From the IMG/VR virus record IMGVR_UViG_3300028364_000001, positions 1 to 61,955 of that record: a stretch of DNA of 61,955 nt; one strand, written 5' to 3'. Below are positions 11,924 to 26,319 of the stretch, in pieces. The notes beneath the pieces are model-generated. The model had not been told where the DNA came from and ran no database searches. It saw nothing but the letters and a program-made list of their open reading frames with translations. The position numbers and the translations under genes were made by a program. The DNA comes from a virus (Duplodnaviria; Caudoviricetes). Each line of letters opens with the position of its first letter. The first letter of the stretch is position 1.

Positions 11924-14900
11924 TCAGTAGTAGGCTGCACGTTTCGGGACATATTCGGTCTCGTCCTCATCCTCGTCTGTGGGCAGGCGGATAAACCCGC
12001 CCTGTCGGAACCTCGTCAGGGCCATCACTGCGGTATCCGCGAGGTCATCGTGGGCGCCGACCGGGAAACTCGCGATCTCCTCCACCAGCTCCTCGGCCCA
12101 ACGGGTCGTCGGCACCCAGACGATGCCTGCCAGCACGATATCTGCCACGGCCTGCATGCGCGCGAACTTGTTACCCGACCCACGGTGGGGGGTAAACTCC
12201 TGCAGCATCATGCCTGTGCGCCGCAATTCTTGAAACAGTGCCACCCCGGAGCTCTTTTTCTCCACGATGAACGCATCCGGCTCCCACTTCTGGTACAGCT
12301 CCGTGGCCAGCGCCCTCAGTTCAGGGTATTCGACCCGGCGCCGCACCGCGTCCAGCAGGATCAGGTTGTTCGTGCGCTCTTCCTCATGAAAAAACACGCC
12401 CCACGTGGTGATCGCGGTATAGTCGGCCTGTTCTTTCTGCTCCGCAGCAGCATCAAGTGCCATGATGATGTAATCCACCTCTGGTGGCTCGGTTCCCGTC
12501 CATATCCGCCACCATTCTCGTTTGATGAGCGCTGAACCTTCCGCCGTGGGGTCCTGCTGGTACTGGGCGTTCCACTGGAACGTGGGCATCGAGGCCTGCG
12601 TGCGGTGCAAGGCTGCCAGATCGAAGAACGCGGGCCACAACGCCTTCTCCTTGATCGTCCCATCAGGCTGCTTGATCTCCATGATGGCTGGAAACTCGAC
12701 CACCTCGTACTGATCGGCGTTGTCGTTCTGGGTCATGTCCTGCACGACTCGCCCCGTAAGGTCCAGGACATGCCAGCGAGTGTTATGGCTCACCAGCCCG
12801 TTCGCTATGAAGTTCTCCGTGCGGTTTATCTGGACATCGAACACTTCTTCCCGCCCTGCAGGGGTGATCGACTCAATCTGGTCTTCGGTGAAGTCGCAGG
12901 TACTCGGCAACCGCAAGGGCGGTCTCTGCAGTTTTTGCGTATCCGGCGGCAAGGTTGCAGTCGTTGCAGAGCAGGGCTCTGACATACCCTCCCTCGTGAC
13001 AGTGATCGACGCACAGTTTGTTGTTCCAGTGCGCCCGGGTGTTGTGCTTGCTGGGGGGTTGCTTGCAGATAGCACACTTGCCCTCTTGGGCGACCAGCAT
13101 CCTGTCGTGCTCCTCCATACTAAGCCCGTACCGGTGTTTAAGATGTATCCTGCGTCTGTCTTCGGGGCTCTGACTCCTCTTTCCAGATGCCCACAGGCTT
13201 TTGTTATAGTGGCTTCTGCAAAACCCTTTAGCTTTCGCAGGGGCATCACAGCCTTCGATAGAGCAGCTCTGGCCCACGTGCTTCCCCCAGTGACCCACAC
13301 CGCGCCGGGGCGCGTCGGGGTTCTTCCGGTGGTAGCAGTCGAAGGATTTGTGAGCCCCTCACTTGCTCCGCTTGGTTGTCGCGCTAGATGGGCGGTCGCA
13401 TCCTTCAGCGATACAACGAAATCCCCCGTCCTCAAGTCTTTCAGGCGTACCCATGCAGTCTCTCCCGTTTGTGTGCGGACCAAGAACGGATGTCGTTCGT
13501 TCGCCCTCACAACAATACCAGAAGTCATCTTGATTGCATATATGCAATCTATACCATTTGACTGATGGTTCACCACCTTCTCATAGTCTAGGCGCCCGTC
13601 GTCATATGTCGCAACGACGTCTCCGACGCGGATATCCCGCAGGGGCTTCCCGCGCCCGTCCTGCATGAGGACCGGGGTGTCGCCTGTCATGCACTGGACC
13701 AACGCCACGCAGCCCCCGGGCATGAGGCGTGTCCGCGCGCCGAAGGTGAACCATTGATATGCCTTGTCGAACACCTCGAAATTGCCCGCCAGCACGTCCT
13801 GCTCGGAGTGTGGGTCGTCGATGATCAGCATGTCCGCACCGCGCCCGGCCAGACTTGAGCCCACACCGGTGGCGTAATACTCGGACCCGTGGTTCGTGCT
13901 CCACCGGCCAGCCGACTTGGAGTCCTGTGCGAGGGTGATCCCTGCGAATATCTCCTGATACCGCGTGTCATTCATCAGGTTCCGCACCTTGCGGCCGAAG
14001 TCCACCGCCAGATCGGTGGTGTGGGACACCATCATGACCTTCTTGCCGGGGTTACGCCCAATGTACCACGCGGGGTAGTATATGGAGACAAGCTGCGAGT
14101 TGTGCGTGGGTGTCAGATTCCGGCCTACCAGATACAGCCCGTCCGGGCTGTCTACCTGAATGCAGTGCCCCACCTCCCCGTTGGGGTTCAGCCGGATAGC
14201 TGCGATTGCCTTCCTGCGCTGCGGGGCCAACCGTTTTATATGTTTGTGGGGGATGTGCACCGGTATATCAATGGTGGGCTGGAAACCCACATAATACACG
14301 ACTTGCCTGCCCACGATCCCGCTCGTCGATGTCGTTGGCGGTTGCTCATACATATAGGGCGCCTGCCCAAGCCCTGTCAGCATCTCCAGCAGGGAGTCCT
14401 TCAACGGGGCAGAACACGTGGCGATCCGCACGCGCCCGGTGCTGCGCTCGACGTGCCCGTCAGTGTCGATGAGCCCCGCCAAGAGATCGAGCCTCTGCTC
14501 CAGAGATGCCCTTATGTAGATGTCGGGTATGTGCTTGTTCCCCAACACCCCCACGTGCCGGAGAGTCTGTTTTATCCCTTGGTAGCAAAACCCTGCTGAT
14601 ATGACCCCGGTATCCTTGTGCACAGCCTCCCAAGTTACGCGAAACCCTCGGCGCTGCAGCTCTGCTCTAGGCTGCGGGTAGTCCGGGTGATATACGAAGT
14701 CAGGGTGCGTCGCCCGGCCGTCCCCTAACCAAACCCCCAAAAAGTATGGGTCCAGAGGCAGCTCTGCCACGGGAAACTCCAGAGGCGTGATTTCAGGTAG
14801 CTGGTATTGGAACCGATTGCCGTTGGTGAGGTTACGTGGCTGGCCAGCTGTGGGCCCGACCCTGCTTGGCTCTAGGAACCATTGGGTCTCCTGTGTTTCC

Positions 14901-15406
14901 CACACCCTTTTCGGGCGACTGTACACAGTCCACTCATGGGCCCCATGGCAGCGTATGGTATCCCCGTTGGTGAACTCCACCTCGTAGTCCGCAGGAGCGG
15001 TGTCGGACACTGCAAGCACCTCGACAGGTTCGCCCGACGGGTGAAACACATAGTCCCCTACCTGAAGCTCCCCGTGAGTTCTCCATCCGGCTGGTGTAAG
15101 GACGGGCGTGCTGTCTGCTACAAGTTTGCCGTGGCGAGGAGGCATGTTCACTGCCACCCGGTCCTTGGCGCCGTTATCCAGTGCCATAAGCTGGTCAGCG
15201 AGGATGCGGTGGTGTCGTCCCACCTTATAGTCAGGCTGCATATATTTGCAGAACGCGATCAAGTCGTCGTAGGCCGCTTGCCGGGCCGAGCGATCCTGCA
15301 GGTCGGAGACCATGGCCTCCACCTCCGCCGCCTCGTCGTGCGTCAGCTGGTCGATGTTTGCCAGCAAGGTGCGCAGCTCGGCTTCGGAGAACCCAACGTC
15401 AGACAT
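11924..15406 (-). CDS. terL: Terminase large subunit with two inteins (1160-aa precursor, about 514 aa spliced)
   Basis: Spliced Walker A MPPRHGK|S, Walker B LIIDDP, VQ|TRWH, nuclease-domain ALDAA and HDDLAD. Confidence 0.93.
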   Translation of the reverse strand: MSDVGFSEAELRTLLANIDQLTHDEAAEVEAMVSDLQDRSARQAAYDDLIAFCKYMQPDYKVGRHHRILADQLMALDNGAKDRVAVNMPPRHGKLVADSTPVLTPAGWRTHGELQVGDYVFHPSGEPVEVLAVSDTAPADYEVEFTNGDTIRCHGAHEWTVYSRPKRVWETQETQWFLEPSRVGPTAGQPRNLTNGNRFQYQLPEITPLEFPVAELPLDPYFLGVWLGDGRATHPDFVYHPDYPQPRAELQRRGFRVTWEAVHKDTGVISAGFCYQGIKQTLRHVGVLGNKHIPDIYIRASLEQRLDLLAGLIDTDGHVERSTGRVRIATCSAPLKDSLLEMLTGLGQAPYMYEQPPTTSTSGIVGRQVVYYVGFQPTIDIPVHIPHKHIKRLAPQRRKAIAAIRLNPNGEVGHCIQVDSPDGLYLVGRNLTPTHNSQLVSIYYPAWYIGRNPGKKVMMVSHTTDLAVDFGRKVRNLMNDTRYQEIFAGITLAQDSKSAGRWSTNHGSEYYATGVGSSLAGRGADMLIIDDPHSEQDVLAGNFEVFDKAYQWFTFGARTRLMPGGCVALVQCMTGDTPVLMQDGRGKPLRDIRVGDVVATYDDGRLDYEKVVNHQSNGIDCIYAIKMTSGIVVRANERHPFLVRTQTGETAWVRLKDLRTGDFVVSLKDATAHLARQPSGASEGLTNPSTATTGRTPTRPGAVWVTGGSTWARAALSKAVMPLRKLKGFAEATITKACGHLERGVRAPKTDAGYILNTGTGLVWRSTTGCWSPKRASVLSASNPPASTTPGRTGTTNCASITVTREGMSEPCSATTATLPPDTQKLQRPPLRLPSTCDFTEDQIESITPAGREEVFDVQINRTENFIANGLVSHNTRWHVLDLTGRVVQDMTQNDNADQYEVVEFPAIMEIKQPDGTIKEKALWPAFFDLAALHRTQASMPTFQWNAQYQQDPTAEGSALIKREWWRIWTGTEPPEVDYIIMALDAAAEQKEQADYTAITTWGVFFHEEERTNNLILLDAVRRRVEYPELRALATELYQKWEPDAFIVEKKSSGVALFQELRRTGMMLQEFTPHRGSGNKFARMQAVADIVLAGIVWVPTTRWAEELVEEIASFPVGAHDDLADTAVMALTRFRQGGFIRLPTDEDEDETEYVPKRAAYY
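12782..13693 (-). mobile_element. TerL intein 2 (304 aa, C...HN|T)
   Basis: CMTGDTPVLMQDG...ANERHPFL...VFDVQINRTENFIANGLVSHN|T; the centre has no in-frame endonuclease motifs. Confidence 0.9.
12873..13298 (-). CDS. Endonuclease VII-family homing endonuclease in an alternative frame inside TerL intein 2
   Basis: RYGLS.EE...M...Q.GKCAIC...LCVDHCH..G.VRALLC..CN...G; N-terminal CSIEGC...GFCRSHY zinc knuckle. Confidence 0.85.
   Translation of the reverse strand: MGHWGKHVGQSCSIEGCDAPAKAKGFCRSHYNKSLWASGKRSQSPEDRRRIHLKHRYGLSMEEHDRMLVAQEGKCAICKQPPSKHNTRAHWNNKLCVDHCHEGGYVRALLCNDCNLAAGYAKTAETALAVAEYLRLHRRPD
14099..15124 (-). mobile_element. TerL intein 1 (342 aa): class-3-like, in-frame LAGLIDADG endonuclease
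   Basis: Inserted in Walker A (GK|LVADSTP...THN|S); LGVWLGDG and LLAGLIDTDG; W (HEW), C (HCIQV) and T (THN) signature. Confidence 0.88.
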
Positions 15407-24159: not shown

Positions 24160-26319
24160 ATGTTTGGGAACGGAAAACTTACACCAGAGCAACGCCTCCA
24201 GAAGGCGGTCATTGCGATCATGCATCACGACAGATACCGCGCCTTGGCGGGGGTGCTGATGATCGGCAGTCGCAAGGTGGGCACCCATCTGGGTCGCACC
24301 GCTGTGGACACCGCCGCCACAAACGGCATGGACGAGATGTACAACCCCGATTTCATCACGTCGCTCAAGGACTCGGAGCTGCGGTTCCTCGTGCTGCACG
24401 AGAACTACCACAAGCTGTACAAGCACCTGACCACATGGCGGTGGATGTATCTGCGCCATAAGCAGGCGGCCAATGCTGCCTGCGTGGTCGGGGAGACCCT
24501 TATCACGATGGCAGACGGATCGTTTCGTGCCGCCGAAAACATTCGGGTTGGGGATAAGGTGCGGACCCCGTTTGGTCCTGCGCCCGTGCTCGCTGTCAAG
24601 GCCACTGACAACCGTCAAGTATGCGAACTTGACATGGGTATGGGATATAAACTACAATGTACCCCTGACCATAAACTACTGACGGATCGTGGATATGTCG
24701 AAGCCCAATGCCTCACAGAAGCGGATACAATCTACTTGGACGCCGGAGATGGACGCCTTTGTGAAGGAGAATCATGGCGTCATGCAGATCAAAGATATGG
24801 CCCCACACTTGGGGGTGACGGCAATGTCTGTGTACCACAGGCTGCGGAAGCTGGGCTTGGCGTCTACTCGGATGACCGTGAAACAGCAATCGCTGAAAGG
24901 CTTGGGTCTCTGGCAGCCTACGGACTGGGCGTACTTCGCCGGCTTGGTGGACGGGGAGGGCACGGTTACGTGCCAGATCACACAGGGCAAGTACCTGAGG
25001 CCAACACTATCCGTGACCAATACGAGCTACAGCTTAATGCTTTGGTTGGAGTCGCTGGGGATGTATTGTGTGCTGGCCCGAAACAACTACGGCAATATGT
25101 ACTGGAAGGCGGAGGTTTCGGGCTTCGGGATATTGCCGGTGCTGGAGGGGATACGCCCTTGGGTGAAGATACGGACCCGTCGCTACGATATACTCATGGA
25201 GATAATCCGCATCCGAACCTCGGCGGGCTACCGTTTCCAGCCGACTACCGCCATCATCTCCTTGTTAGCGGAATTGAAGGCCTTGAACCTGCGAGGCTCA
25301 CAGTTAGAAGATTCCTTGGCGAGAGCCGGAGAGTCTACGACATCACTACGCCCGCACAGTGTTTTGTTGCAAACGGGGTAGTCGTGCACAATTGCGATTT
25401 TGTCATCAACATCAAGCTGGTGGACGACAACAAGACTGACCGCTTCGCCACCATGACAGGGGGCCTGCTGATCGGCTGCTTCGACGAGAAATATAGAGAC
25501 TGGGACAGCGCTGCGGTGTTCCACGACCTGCTCAAGAACGCCAAGCAAGGCGGGGGTGGCGGCCAAGGCGAACCCGGCCAACCCGGCGAACCCGGCGAAG
25601 GCGAACCGGGCCAAGGCTTCGACGCCCACGACTGGGACGGGGCGCAGGACATGCCCGATGCTGACAAGCAGGCGCTGGCACGCGACATCGACGAGGCGAT
25701 CCGCCAAGGCGCGCTGATGGCAGGCAAGACCGGGTCAGGCGGTGACAGGTCACTTGATGATCTGATGCAGCCACAGGTGGACTGGCGCACGGCGCTGCGC
25801 GACTTCATCACCACGACCTGCGCAGGGTCTGACTTCTCCACGTGGAAGCGGCCCAACCGTCGCTTCATCGGCGCGGGCTACTACATGCCCAGTGGCATCA
25901 CGGAGCGTGTCAAGGATATCTGCGTGGCCGTGGACACCTCGGGGTCCATCAGAGGGCCGCAACTGGCATCGTTTCTGAGCGAGGTCCGGGGCATCGCCGA
26001 CTCCGTGCGGCCCGAGCGCATCCACCTGCTGTACTGGGACACGGCAGTGTGCCGCCACGAGGTGTATCTGGAGCAGGACCTGCACAACTTGGTCCAGTCG
26101 ACCAAGCCCGAGGGCGGCGGAGGCACCATGGTCGAGTGCGTGCCGGAGTTCCTCAACAAGATGGGGATCACCCCACAAGCGGTTATCGTGCTGACCGACG
26201 GCTACCTCGGCGGCAGCTGGGGCACGTGGACCTGTCCGGTCCTGTGGACCATCCTCGACAACAAGAGCGCCCGCCCTGACCACGGGGCAACGGTGCACAT
26301 CAAGGGTCACGAGCTGTGA
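24160..26319 (+). CDS. Metallopeptidase (HExxH) + VWA-like protein (DUF2201-like) with an intein (about 415 aa spliced)
   Basis: TAATNG, LHENYH, ANAA|CDFVIN after splicing, MIDAS DTSGS, GGGT, VLTDG. Confidence 0.88.
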   Translation: MFGNGKLTPEQRLQKAVIAIMHHDRYRALAGVLMIGSRKVGTHLGRTAVDTAATNGMDEMYNPDFITSLKDSELRFLVLHENYHKLYKHLTTWRWMYLRHKQAANAACVVGETLITMADGSFRAAENIRVGDKVRTPFGPAPVLAVKATDNRQVCELDMGMGYKLQCTPDHKLLTDRGYVEAQCLTEADTIYLDAGDGRLCEGESWRHADQRYGPTLGGDGNVCVPQAAEAGLGVYSDDRETAIAERLGSLAAYGLGVLRRLGGRGGHGYVPDHTGQVPEANTIRDQYELQLNALVGVAGDVLCAGPKQLRQYVLEGGGFGLRDIAGAGGDTPLGEDTDPSLRYTHGDNPHPNLGGLPFPADYRHHLLVSGIEGLEPARLTVRRFLGESRRVYDITTPAQCFVANGVVVHNCDFVINIKLVDDNKTDRFATMTGGLLIGCFDEKYRDWDSAAVFHDLLKNAKQGGGGGQGEPGQPGEPGEGEPGQGFDAHDWDGAQDMPDADKQALARDIDEAIRQGALMAGKTGSGGDRSLDDLMQPQVDWRTALRDFITTTCAGSDFSTWKRPNRRFIGAGYYMPSGITERVKDICVAVDTSGSIRGPQLASFLSEVRGIADSVRPERIHLLYWDTAVCRHEVYLEQDLHNLVQSTKPEGGGGTMVECVPEFLNKMGITPQAVIVLTDGYLGGSWGTWTCPVLWTILDNKSARPDHGATVHIKGHEL
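24481..25392 (+). mobile_element. Intein 3 (304 aa, C...HN|C)
   Basis: CVVGETLITMADG...CTPDHKLLT...VYDITT...FVANGVVVHN|C. Confidence 0.9.
24689..25381 (+). CDS. LAGLIDADG homing endonuclease with an N-terminal HTH, in the +1 frame inside intein 3
   Basis: WAYFAGLVDGEGTV...RPTLSVTNTS...; N-terminal WT.E.D..........MA.HLG.T..SV..R..KLGL. Confidence 0.85.
   Translation: MDMSKPNASQKRIQSTWTPEMDAFVKENHGVMQIKDMAPHLGVTAMSVYHRLRKLGLASTRMTVKQQSLKGLGLWQPTDWAYFAGLVDGEGTVTCQITQGKYLRPTLSVTNTSYSLMLWLESLGMYCVLARNNYGNMYWKAEVSGFGILPVLEGIRPWVKIRTRRYDILMEIIRIRTSAGYRFQPTTAIISLLAELKALNLRGSQLEDSLARAGESTTSLRPHSVLLQTG

Follow-up and report, generated by a model that had tools for sequence, protein, structure and literature searches.

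An endonuclease VII gene nested in the +2 frame of a TerL intein from an uncultivated lake phage

The TerL gene of an uncultivated lake phage harbors an intein whose DNA is read in two frames of the same strand, one encoding the splicing domains of the intein together with a featureless linker and the other, offset by +2, encoding a nuclease of the endonuclease VII family. The gene lies in the window, the stretch of 61,955 nucleotides under study, and the arrangement recurs in related phages and prophages. We consider it likely that this intein (intein 2) and the nuclease gene are overprinted so as to give rise to two separate products, the nuclease being translated from an internal start and acting in homing, and that the copy in the window is decaying. 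The features on which this account is built are as follows.

11924-15406, minus strand: TerL precursor gene of 1160 codons (3483 nt) with two inteins inside it; Pfam matches to Terminase_6C (9.1e-11), Intein_splicing and LAGLIDADG_3
12782-13693, minus strand: intein 2, 304 aa (TerL residues 572-875), running from Cys1 to His-Asn and followed by Thr+1; insertion site LVQ|TRWH
13382-13693, minus strand: aa 1-104 of intein 2, its N-terminal splicing (Hint) portion; pLDDT 88-97; conserved in 20/20 aligned inteins
12902-13381, minus strand: intein-frame linker, aa 105-264, the other reading of the nuclease gene; predicted to be disordered, pLDDT <50
12782-12901, minus strand: aa 265-304 of intein 2, its C-terminal splicing portion; pLDDT 94-97
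12873-13454, minus strand, +2 frame: full nuclease (putative homing endonuclease) gene of 193 codons, starting with ATG 13454-13452, ending with TGA 12875-12873, and broken at codon 32 by a further TGA
13460-13466, minus strand: Shine-Dalgarno-like GGGAGAG, 5 nt 5' of the nuclease ATG and made of intein Gly-Glu codons
13359-13361, minus strand: in-frame TGA at nuclease codon 32, within the first zinc finger; the intein frame reads Glu (GAG) here
12873-13298, minus strand: 141-aa ORF of the earlier note, with a GTG start, 3' of the nonsense codon; second zinc finger and endonuclease VII domain
12894-13145, minus strand: endonuclease VII catalytic domain (CxxC, DHxH, CxxCN), Pfam PF02945, residues 52-135 of the 141-aa ORF

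Intein 2 is a mobile mini-intein of class-1 type located within the ATPase domain of TerL. Its 304 codons are free of stops in the TerL frame, its junction residues read CMTGD...VSHN|TRWH, and it matches Pfam Intein_splicing with an E-value of 8.1e-16. The nucleophiles and termini are represented by Cys1, His303-Asn304, and Thr+1; among 20 sequences, Cys1 and Asn304 are invariant and His303 is retained in at least 90%. In the segment that we take to be block B (Thr-x-x-His), His68 is invariant and the usual Thr position is occupied by Asn65 in all 20 aligned inteins. The AlphaFold2 model of intein 2 has pLDDT values above 88 at aa 1-104 and 265-304, and a Foldseek search with the whole model found the NpuDnaB mini-intein 4o1r (TMt 0.87, rmsd 2.0) and Ssp DnaB 1mi8 (TMt 0.86), with both splicing parts covered. 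The intervening linker (aa 105-264) consists to 65% of T/S/P/G/A/R and is modeled at pLDDT <50 with zero secondary structure, in keeping with the earlier note, which had described an open frame of 304 aa with a T/P/S-rich middle. The boundaries of intein 2 are confirmed at the DNA level by an empty allele from a salt lake (run X5) that joins 12781|13694 exactly, and the insertion site follows the pattern ...Q/M/L|C...HN|T(R/W)W at 14/14 loci and likewise at 19 loci of a second set. Intein 2 would be expected to splice out of TerL, because TerL is essential and the intein frame has been kept open.

The earlier note had also placed an endonuclease VII-type nuclease, out of frame, at 12873-13298, and the 141-aa ORF found there does belong to this family, matching Pfam Endonuclease_7 PF02945 at 4.3e-16 (59.0 bits against a cut-off of 23.6) and the PHROG annotated as 'endonuclease VII' at 1.1e-23. 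Eight residues of the ORF (C75, C78, C111, C114, D98, H99, H101, and N115) are invariant in an alignment of 6 sequences, the same columns being invariant in an alignment of 20, and their roles are presumed to be those of their counterparts in the T4 enzyme. Similarity to T4 endonuclease VII (gp49; 1e7d, 1en7) is weak (2.3e-4 against 1e7d), but the catalytic and zinc residues of the CxxC, DHxH-like, and CxxCN core align; gp49 itself is a free-standing junction-resolving enzyme and carries no N-terminal fingers. The residue that follows CN.. is Ala in the window nuclease, Val in most relatives, and Glu in T4 endonuclease VII (...CNAAEG), where this Glu matters. A model built on the intact nuclease of a relative (locus L005) has a mean pLDDT of 84.3, and its top Foldseek matches were Hpy99I (3.2e-3) and T4 endonuclease VII (5.9e-3), both of them weak (E about 1e-3 to 1e-2, TM about 0.3), with nothing at E <= 0.001. 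The nested endonuclease VII is probably the homing enzyme for intein 2, as indicated indirectly by the coexistence of an empty and an intact-nuclease allele and by the much closer resemblance of the intein than of the exteins between distant phages.

The frame and motifs assigned to 12873-13298 have stood, whereas the ORF boundaries have not. The nuclease reading frame is homologous to that of relatives upstream as far as the ATG at 13454, which is the native start, and the TGA at 13359-13361 interrupts it; the 141-aa ORF is thus the part of a longer gene that lies past a nonsense codon. Relative to the N-extein, the N- and C-terminal parts of the intein, and the C-extein alike, the nuclease frame is offset by +2 (= -1), as the earlier note had stated, and the frame is ended by a stop codon of its own ahead of the C-terminal splicing part.

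The same offset is found in the four phage records in which it was read (Angelicage, Phlyer, Vincenzo, and Nordenberg). Of ten IMG/VR loci with intein flanks, eight have the +2 offset on both sides; in L004 it is seen solely on the C side, and L008 is aberrant. Of 18 loci from prokaryote genomes, 17 have it on both sides, the remaining one (L097) again being aberrant. The suggestion that this is a recurring architecture is thereby borne out by 32 other loci, the 29 among them with +2 on both sides being drawn from three collections and having nuclease identities of 43-97%, although shared ancestry means that these loci are not independent events. The best match among phages is Angelicage, a Gordonia phage, whose terL nuclease is 56% identical. 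In tblastn searches, the 141-aa ORF matched inside the terminase genes of Angelicage, Affeca, Keitabear, and Sedona with 54-56% identity over 96% of its length (E 2e-46 to 1e-43); of these four, the frame was read in the record itself for Angelicage alone. Conservation is concentrated in the intein, in that Angelicage and Phlyer are 52-74% identical to the window in the intein parts and 52-56% in the nuclease, as against 24-25% in the exteins, and at the DNA level the window terL is 72% identical to Angelicage in two pieces within the intein span that together make up 11% of the 3483-nt query. Carriers of the nested unit are phages and prophages labelled as belonging to many bacterial phyla, including a Bradyrhizobium isolate (on a contig of 948 kb), Mycolicibacterium, and metagenome-assembled genomes of Chloroflexota, Verrucomicrobiota, and Gamma- and Betaproteobacteria; further carriers are lake phages, with GC contents of 41-68%. 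The portal protein of the window phage is closest (about 40% aa identity) to those of phages of Gammaproteobacteria, cyanobacteria, Pelagibacter, Roseobacter, and Caulobacter.

Both frames of the overlap are under selection. Among 10 non-redundant loci, from which L004 (truncated), L008 (aberrant), and L006, L011, and L013 (duplicates of L005, L010, and L012, respectively) were left out, the nuclease shows 0.36, 0.34, and 0.60 differences per site at codon positions 1, 2, and 3 (45 pairs), and dN/dS between the window and L005 nucleases is 0.11. Identity across the linker is 0.46 in the nuclease frame versus 0.27 in the intein frame. The demand on the intein frame is seen in its freedom from stops: when the window nuclease was recoded synonymously in 5000 trials, the intein frame remained stop-free in 4.5%, and for the 10 family members the simulated proportion was 0-32%, as against an observed 10/10 that are open. 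The third frame of the same members contains 3-28 stops. Downstream of the last sense codon of the nuclease (12782-12875), 4/4 differences between the window and L005 fall at third positions of the intein frame. The alignments of a second set of 19 loci left out L092, L090 (= L089), L097 (merged frames), L100 (broken nuclease), and four GenBank phage loci.

The nuclease start is embedded in conserved intein codons. The ATG at 13454 lies on the codons for a G-E-x-x-W stretch, and of 28 loci, 26 have a start codon (ATG in 21 and GTG in 5) that overlaps the codon for the conserved Trp; by intein residue, the start falls at aa 79-80 in 14/14 loci. A GGAG-like motif precedes it in most loci, as scored with a permissive list of motifs and without a shuffled control. 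Intact nuclease ORFs that begin at this start in relatives are 153-194 aa long in 19/19 examined. No Pfam family was matched at E <= 0.01 by the leader of 31 codons (13362-13454) that precedes the nonsense codon in the window. An antisense ORF of 281 aa (12720-13565, plus strand) shares the codon register of the nuclease; just 4 of 24 homologues keep it free of stops, and it was treated as a shadow ORF.

At 13359-13361, close relatives (96% identical) and the salt-lake run X5 carry a Cys codon (TGC or TGT in the relatives, TGC in X5), whereas TGA is seen in contigs of runs X1, X4, and X6. Since this TGA occupies codon 32, the full-length nuclease cannot be made in the window genome. Recoding of TGA as a sense codon was considered and rejected, as 8 of the 12 long ORFs that were checked terminate in TGA, among them terL, the portal gene, and the nuclease gene. 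No intact, translatable nuclease gene was found in the window genome, where the 141-codon remainder alone is open and has no evident ribosome-binding site. Over the 96 nt leading to the stop, the window and L005 differ at 12 positions that do not favor third positions, whereas in the 423 nt from the GTG onward there are 13 differences, 9 of them at third positions (Fisher p = 5e-4 versus the upstream 96 nt); the region 5' of the stop has thus diverged from L005 four times faster than the remainder. The terL frame stays open in the copies with a broken nuclease, namely the window and L100. Most likely, the window copy has just entered the decay phase of a homing cycle, with splicing retained, although 'decaying' may overstate what is a single substitution.

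Other alleles can be seen in DNA contigs of sequencing runs (24 runs listed; the window may itself come from the sample behind X1-X3). The intein copy of run X5 differs from that of the window by 9 substitutions in 933 nt, carries the TGC allele, and has different flanking sequence, and the same run holds the intein-less allele alongside this intact-nuclease allele. Three alleles therefore exist in nature: empty, with an intact nuclease, and with the nonsense codon.

In the mechanism that we propose, ribosomes in the TerL frame would cross about 160 unconserved and disordered linker codons, on which the sole demand would be the lack of a stop, and the Hint fold assembled from residues 1-104 and 265-304 would then splice TerL at LVQ|TRWH. 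Other ribosomes would start at the internal Shine-Dalgarno-like motif and ATG, yielding a protein of 193 aa in which an endonuclease VII (beta-beta-alpha-metal) domain is combined with two Cys-rich fingers. At co-infection, this nuclease would be predicted to cut intein-less TerL alleles, with repair copying in the intein and the nuclease gene together.

Several other explanations have to be set against this one. Frameshift errors of assembly or sequencing could mimic nesting in what would really be an intein with an in-frame endonuclease VII, as L008 and L097, in which the N-terminal part of the intein lies in the nuclease frame, might suggest. The TerL frames of these two loci are broken, however, and the independent contigs of runs X1, X4, X5, and X6 contain zero indels over 12700-13760; together with the +2 offset on both sides in 29 other loci, the stop codon proper to the nuclease, and its conserved start codon and ribosome-binding site, this leaves the explanation with almost no credence, in agreement with the view of the earlier note that assembly error was unlikely. 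Programmed -1 frameshifting, by which the nuclease would be made as an N-extein-IntN-EndoVII fusion and not as a separate protein, draws on the equivalence of +2 and -1 and on the fact that L008 and L097 encode such a fusion in a single frame. It is nevertheless highly improbable, given that 17 of 24 loci, including the window, have no X_XXY_YYZ heptamer where one would be needed and the others have none at a conserved place, and that the position of the start codon is shared by 26 of 28 loci, most of which have a GGAG-like motif before it.

Two further alternatives accept the separate nuclease and differ as to its product or purpose. T4 endonuclease VII resolves branched DNA ahead of packaging, and by analogy the nested enzyme might serve the phage itself, and not homing, in branch resolution or in association with terminase during packaging, its placement in terL ensuring co-expression. 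The available portion of a 2015 brucellaphage paper speculates along similar lines that an out-of-frame HNH gene is functionally linked to its host terminase gene. Such a role is improbable here, as the nuclease always accompanies the intein at one site and is missing where alleles of the same population lack the intein, distant phages resemble each other much more in intein and nuclease than in the exteins, and the copies with a broken nuclease maintain an open TerL frame. The other alternative concerns the window copy, whose nuclease could be active as a shortened, one-finger form initiated or re-initiated internally at GTG 13298, the first finger being dispensable. Such a truncated enzyme is conceivable because the remainder 3' of the stop keeps a purifying pattern, the slower and third-position-biased divergence from L005 described above; in addition, the 141-codon remainder contains all of the invariant catalytic and zinc residues, and one finger is natural in many relatives, with proteins of 151-162 aa. 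These one-finger relatives still use the ATG on the Trp codon, however, while GTG 13298 lies 60 nt past the stop with no GGAG-like motif upstream, and the purifying pattern may be older than a recent nonsense mutation. We regard a functional short form as somewhat unlikely, and the overprinted pair with a disabled nuclease in the window as the preferred account.

The earlier note had allowed that such inteins might already be reported, and this particular family is in print. The terL intein and its nuclease have been described in actinophages on the basis of a survey of PhagesDB only, with Angelicage (printed 'Angelicase'), Affeca, Keitabear, and Sedona among the phages named (Gosselin et al., bioRxiv 2025). 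That family shares with the window its host gene, nuclease family, 'frame 3' (= +2), and insertion site, and is directly homologous to it; the window differs in deriving from an uncultivated lake phage and in having a two-fingered nuclease with a nonsense codon. In its main text, the strings 'start codon', 'ribosom', and 'metagenom' do not occur (Gosselin et al., bioRxiv 2025). Comparable arrangements are a dnaX intein of cyanobacteria that carries a LAGLIDADG homing endonuclease out of frame (+2; Phillips, DeSimone, and Gogarten, bioRxiv 10.64898/2026.09.14.751524), which is likewise a same-strand overlap with purifying selection on the nuclease frame and relaxed selection on the intein frame, but in which the nuclease is of another family, the host gene is cellular, and the sequence is not homologous to the window; and the ShiLan insertion of actinophage DNA methylase genes (Arsenault, Gosselin, and Gogarten, Genes 2025, PMC11855218), which similarly combines an in-frame, stop-free insert with a hidden out-of-frame HNH endonuclease of homing type but lacks splicing domains, whereas the window element is a complete intein. 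The brucellaphage paper already mentioned had attributed to an intein a nuclease ORF lying over the middle of terL in another frame; that nuclease is annotated as HNH, and the portion available contains no frame or selection analysis. The principle of an out-of-frame nuclease within an intein is therefore already published, and none of the additions made by the window changes it. What may be new is that the family spreads past actinophages, that the start signal is built into the intein, and that the alleles form a natural series.

Taken together, start signals that lie in Hint codons, a single TerL site, a start at residues 79-80, and a wide range of phyla suggest that TerL intein and endonuclease VII gene are an old pair whose overlap is obligatory, as opposed to an invasion that is rare, recent, and restricted to actinophages; we see this as about evenly balanced. 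If it is correct, lake populations display three stages of the homing cycle together, namely an unoccupied site, an intact nuclease, and a nonsense allele. The allele series in lake metagenomes could be followed over time to inform homing-cycle models. The family also supports the notion of splicing domains and homing nucleases as distinct partners able to share DNA without being fused. The nested nuclease is overlooked by gene callers, and inteins of this kind are filed as mini-inteins or as decaying inteins. The proposed translation start is concrete and testable, consisting of a GGAG-like motif and an ATG set on Gly-Glu-x-x-Trp codons.

A second intein with a nested ORF is present in the same genome. 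Intein 3 lies in the gene at 24160-26319, and although its nested ORF matched no Pfam family at E <= 0.01, it is found at 24689-25381 with an offset of +1, so that the two different offsets put forward in the earlier note, +2 in intein 2 and +1 in intein 3, are both present.

The TerL precursor of the window, a complete record of 61,955 bp with terminal repeats, contains an intein (intein 2) that holds an endonuclease VII-type gene in its +2 frame, and this nested nuclease is real, well supported and of a kind published before. The features concerned are listed here.

Features of the TerL gene and its nested nuclease
11924-15406, minus strand: TerL precursor, 1160 aa (Pfam Terminase_6C, Intein_splicing and LAGLIDADG_3)
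12782-13693, minus strand: intein 2, 304 aa, TerL residues 572-875 (Pfam Intein_splicing, 8.1e-16)
12873-13298, minus strand: nuclease ORF of the earlier note, 141 codons, +2 frame (Pfam, PHROG and T4 endonuclease VII matches)
12873-13454, minus strand: full nuclease gene, 193 codons, interrupted, taken from the homologous start in relatives
13359-13361, minus strand: in-frame TGA within the nuclease gene, Cys in the IMG/VR loci L004, L005 and L006

Intein 2 begins CMTGD and ends FIANGLVSHN, after which TerL resumes with TRWH. In an AlphaFold2 model built on a 20-sequence alignment, residues 1-104 and 265-304 reach pLDDT values of 88-97, and this ordered part resembles solved mini-inteins (NpuDnaB 4o1r: TMt 0.87, rmsd 2.0); residues 105-264 fall below 50 and are devoid of secondary structure. 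The earlier note had placed an endonuclease VII ORF out of frame at 12873-13298, and family searches bear this out, with matches to Pfam Endonuclease_7 (4.3e-16, 59 bits against a cut-off of 23.6), to PHROG endonuclease VII families (1.1e-23) and to T4 endonuclease VII itself (2.3e-4). The structure of the nuclease frame was modelled from L005, a close relative with an intact gene (mean pLDDT 84.3); its top Foldseek matches, both weak, are the beta-beta-alpha-metal enzymes Hpy99I (3.2e-3) and T4 endonuclease VII (5.9e-3). An antisense ORF of 281 codons (12720-13565, plus strand) spans the entire nuclease gene, the codon register being common to both; only 4 of 24 homologues keep this antisense frame free of stops, which makes it probably a shadow ORF. 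The same TerL carries intein 1 (14099-15124, minus strand, 342 aa), inserted in the Walker A loop after PPRHGK and ending in THN before SQLVS. Its first residue is Leu, neither Cys nor Ser, it has an in-frame LAGLIDADG_3 match (1.6e-5), and it may be a candidate class 3-type intein.

Logan contigs from four sequencing runs, X1 (possibly the source sample) and X4, X5 and X6 (other samples, X5 being from a salt lake), were compared with the window over 12700-13760, and no inserted or deleted letters were found in any of them. The X1 contig covers the entire interval with 0 differences, X4 contigs cover 12700-13531 and 13558-13760 with 0 differences, X6 contigs cover the interval in four pieces with 4 substitutions, and an X5 contig covers 12773-13705 with nine substitutions in 933 nt. 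The indel-free contigs from four runs rule out an assembly artefact as the source of the nesting, which the earlier note had already judged unlikely.

The proposal that the architecture recurs has likewise held up. Among 50,697 phage records, the best matches of the nuclease lie within terminase genes of Gordonia and Mycobacterium phages, and in all four records examined (Angelicage, Phlyer, Vincenzo and Nordenberg) the offset is +2 from the annotated terL start. An IMG/VR scan with the nuclease returned 80 loci, ten of which (L004-L013) are flanked on one or both sides by intein halves of the window's type, eight with the +2 offset on both sides; in L004, which is cut by a contig end, the offset is visible on the C side only, and in L008 the N-terminal intein half shares the nuclease frame. 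The remaining 70 loci were matched in the catalytic part alone (32-51% identity), with no intein near. Scanning prokaryote genomes, one per species, gave 21 loci, 18 of them nested (L086-L103), and 17 of these combine a +2 offset on both sides with a TerL frame that is open for 540-1261 codons. The nuclease frame is merged with the N-terminal intein half in L097 and is broken in L100, where the TerL frame is open. All members share one TerL insertion site, following Q, M or L and preceding T(R/W)W, with an intein of the form C...HN, and the nuclease ORF starts at intein residue 79 or 80. L008 (1900-2740) and L097 (2195-2966) have a single ORF of N-extein, N-terminal intein half and nuclease, followed in the +1 frame by the C-terminal half and C-extein, with an additional frame change within the N-extein of L008; these forms could be broken genes, assembly errors or split-intein-like. 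In L006 (1319-2400) and L103 (1343-2109), about 0.8-1.1 kb separates the intein start from the upstream stretch that matches the window's N-extein, both lying in a single open TerL frame (1261 codons in L103), which suggests an extra insertion at a nearby site, perhaps another intein.

In relatives, the nuclease frame extends without stops beyond the 5' end of the 141-codon ORF, and an ATG stands at one homologous position, formed from the final base of one intein codon and the TG of a conserved Trp codon (...G-E-T-A-W-V-R-L-K-D-L...). This position bears a start codon in 26 of 28 loci (21 ATG, 5 GTG), the exceptions being the frame-merged L008 and L097, and an uninterrupted ORF of 153-194 aa follows in all 19 non-redundant IMG/VR and genome loci. 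Two Cys-rich fingers precede the catalytic domain in the long forms, the window's among them, and a single one does in the short forms. In the window, GGGAGAG precedes the ATG at 13454 (minus strand) by 5 nt, and GGAG-like motifs drawn from intein Gly-Glu codons lie at equal distance in most relatives (by a loose motif list, without control). An X_XXY_YYZ slippery heptamer is absent from 17 of 24 loci and was found at no conserved place, so that independent initiation is the better reading than frameshifting.

Selection acts on both frames, for different things. In pairwise comparisons of ten non-redundant members (45 pairs), per-site differences are 0.36, 0.34 and 0.60 for the first, second and third codon positions of the nuclease; dN and dS between the window and L005 are 0.012 and 0.110, and mean amino-acid identity over the linker is 0.46 for the nuclease reading and 0.27 for the intein reading. 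No stop interrupts the intein frame along the nuclease gene in any of the 10 members (3-28 stops in the third frame), counts that are not independent trials, the loci being related. When each nuclease protein was randomly recoded with synonymous codons, following the codon usage of the locus's own terL, the share of trials that left the intein frame free of stops was 4.5% for the window, at most 32% for any member, and 0.00% and 0.02% for the two 43%-GC members; the low-GC members alone show that openness is maintained.

The window's own copy is interrupted by the TGA at 13359-13361, which is also seen in contigs of X1, X4 and X6; the nucleases of L004, L005 and L006 are 96% identical to it. 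Recoding is ruled out, TGA being an ordinary stop that terminates 8 of 12 long ORFs checked, terL and the nuclease gene among them. In the intein frame the change replaces Ala with Glu within the disordered linker, which leaves TerL unaffected. Compared with L005, the window has 12 differences in the 96 nt up to the TGA, spread over all three codon positions, which makes this part look released from constraint; the 423 nt after GTG 13298 hold 13, nine at third positions, and look constrained (density, Fisher p = 5e-4). Past the last sense codon of the nuclease (12782-12875), 4 of 4 differences are at intein-frame third positions. Recent inactivation and continued use of a shortened enzyme would each fit this pattern. 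Inactivation is reasonably probable and the likelier of the two; the shortened enzyme is rather unlikely, and no GGAG-like motif was found ahead of GTG 13298 in the window. Elsewhere, L100 (2378-2926), with its nuclease frame open only to 2590 and its TerL frame open for 1001 codons, appears to have gone further in nuclease decay while keeping its intein.

X5 carries an allele that lacks the intein, 12781 being joined to 13694 precisely as predicted: one contig ends at 12781, running on into letters from 13694, and another begins with letters up to 12781 and resumes at 13694. Also present in X5 is the intein with an intact codon (G instead of T at plus-strand 13359, hence minus-strand TGC, Cys), at a word depth of 8.45 versus about 5 and 13.7 for the empty-allele pieces, these being contig depths and not allele frequencies. 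About 20 nt on each side of the intein contig, beyond 12773 and 13705, are unlike the window's TerL, which is what a diverged terL allele carrying this intein would be expected to show. A further sign of mobility comes from comparing the window with Angelicage and Phlyer: the intein halves share 53-74% and the nucleases 52-56% identity, against 24-25% for flanking TerL.

The window's portal is nearest to those of phages of Gammaproteobacteria, cyanobacteria, Pelagibacter and Roseobacter (39-44% identity over 79-96%), with 34% over 79% to Caulobacter phages; no actinobacterial host appears in the host summary or among the 15 listed of 18 matching records. Record titles of the nested genome loci include Bradyrhizobium tropiciagri (948-kb contig) and Mycolicibacterium vanbaalenii, and MAG labels, unreliable for short phage-like contigs, include Anaerolineae, Chloroflexota, Opitutaceae, Oleiphilaceae, Sulfuritalea, Geobacteraceae, Caulobacteraceae, Microbacteriaceae, Saccharimonadales, Clostridiaceae and others. 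Two Firmicutes isolate assemblies of one project, L089 (Oribacterium sp.) and L090 (Dysosmobacter sp.), have identical coordinates, identities and 64% GC. This GC looks high for either genus, and the pair may therefore reflect cross-contamination or a shared phage.

Actinophage terL inteins with an out-of-frame nuclease, among which Angelicage, Affeca, Keitabear and Sedona are named, were termed a previously unreported type by Gosselin et al. (bioRxiv 2025), whose main text makes no mention of start codon, ribosome binding or metagenomes. Related cases are a cyanobacterial dnaX intein with a LAGLIDADG gene in the +2 frame, which has coexisting alleles and, as in the window's family, frame-specific selection (Phillips et al., bioRxiv 10.64898/2026.09.14.751524), a non-intein insertion with an out-of-frame HNH gene (Arsenault et al., Genes 2025, PMC11855218) and an out-of-frame "intein-encoded HNH" noted in brucellaphage terL in 2015 (PMC4422536). 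Possible advances on the published description are the wide host spread of the window's nuclease-intein family, the start signal within conserved intein codons, and the allele series seen in nature (empty, intact and nonsense).

The window holds a third intein at about 24478-25392 (plus strand; Pfam Intein_splicing, 6.2e-9), in a DUF2201 metallopeptidase/VWA-like host gene (24160-26319, plus strand). Its nested ORF (24689-25381, 230 aa, +1 frame) has no Pfam family and matches a PHROG "HNH endonuclease" (2.8e-7) and the N-terminus of a D5-like regulator (4.3e-9); with this HNH-like ORF, one phage thus carries two different out-of-frame intein nucleases and one canonical intein.
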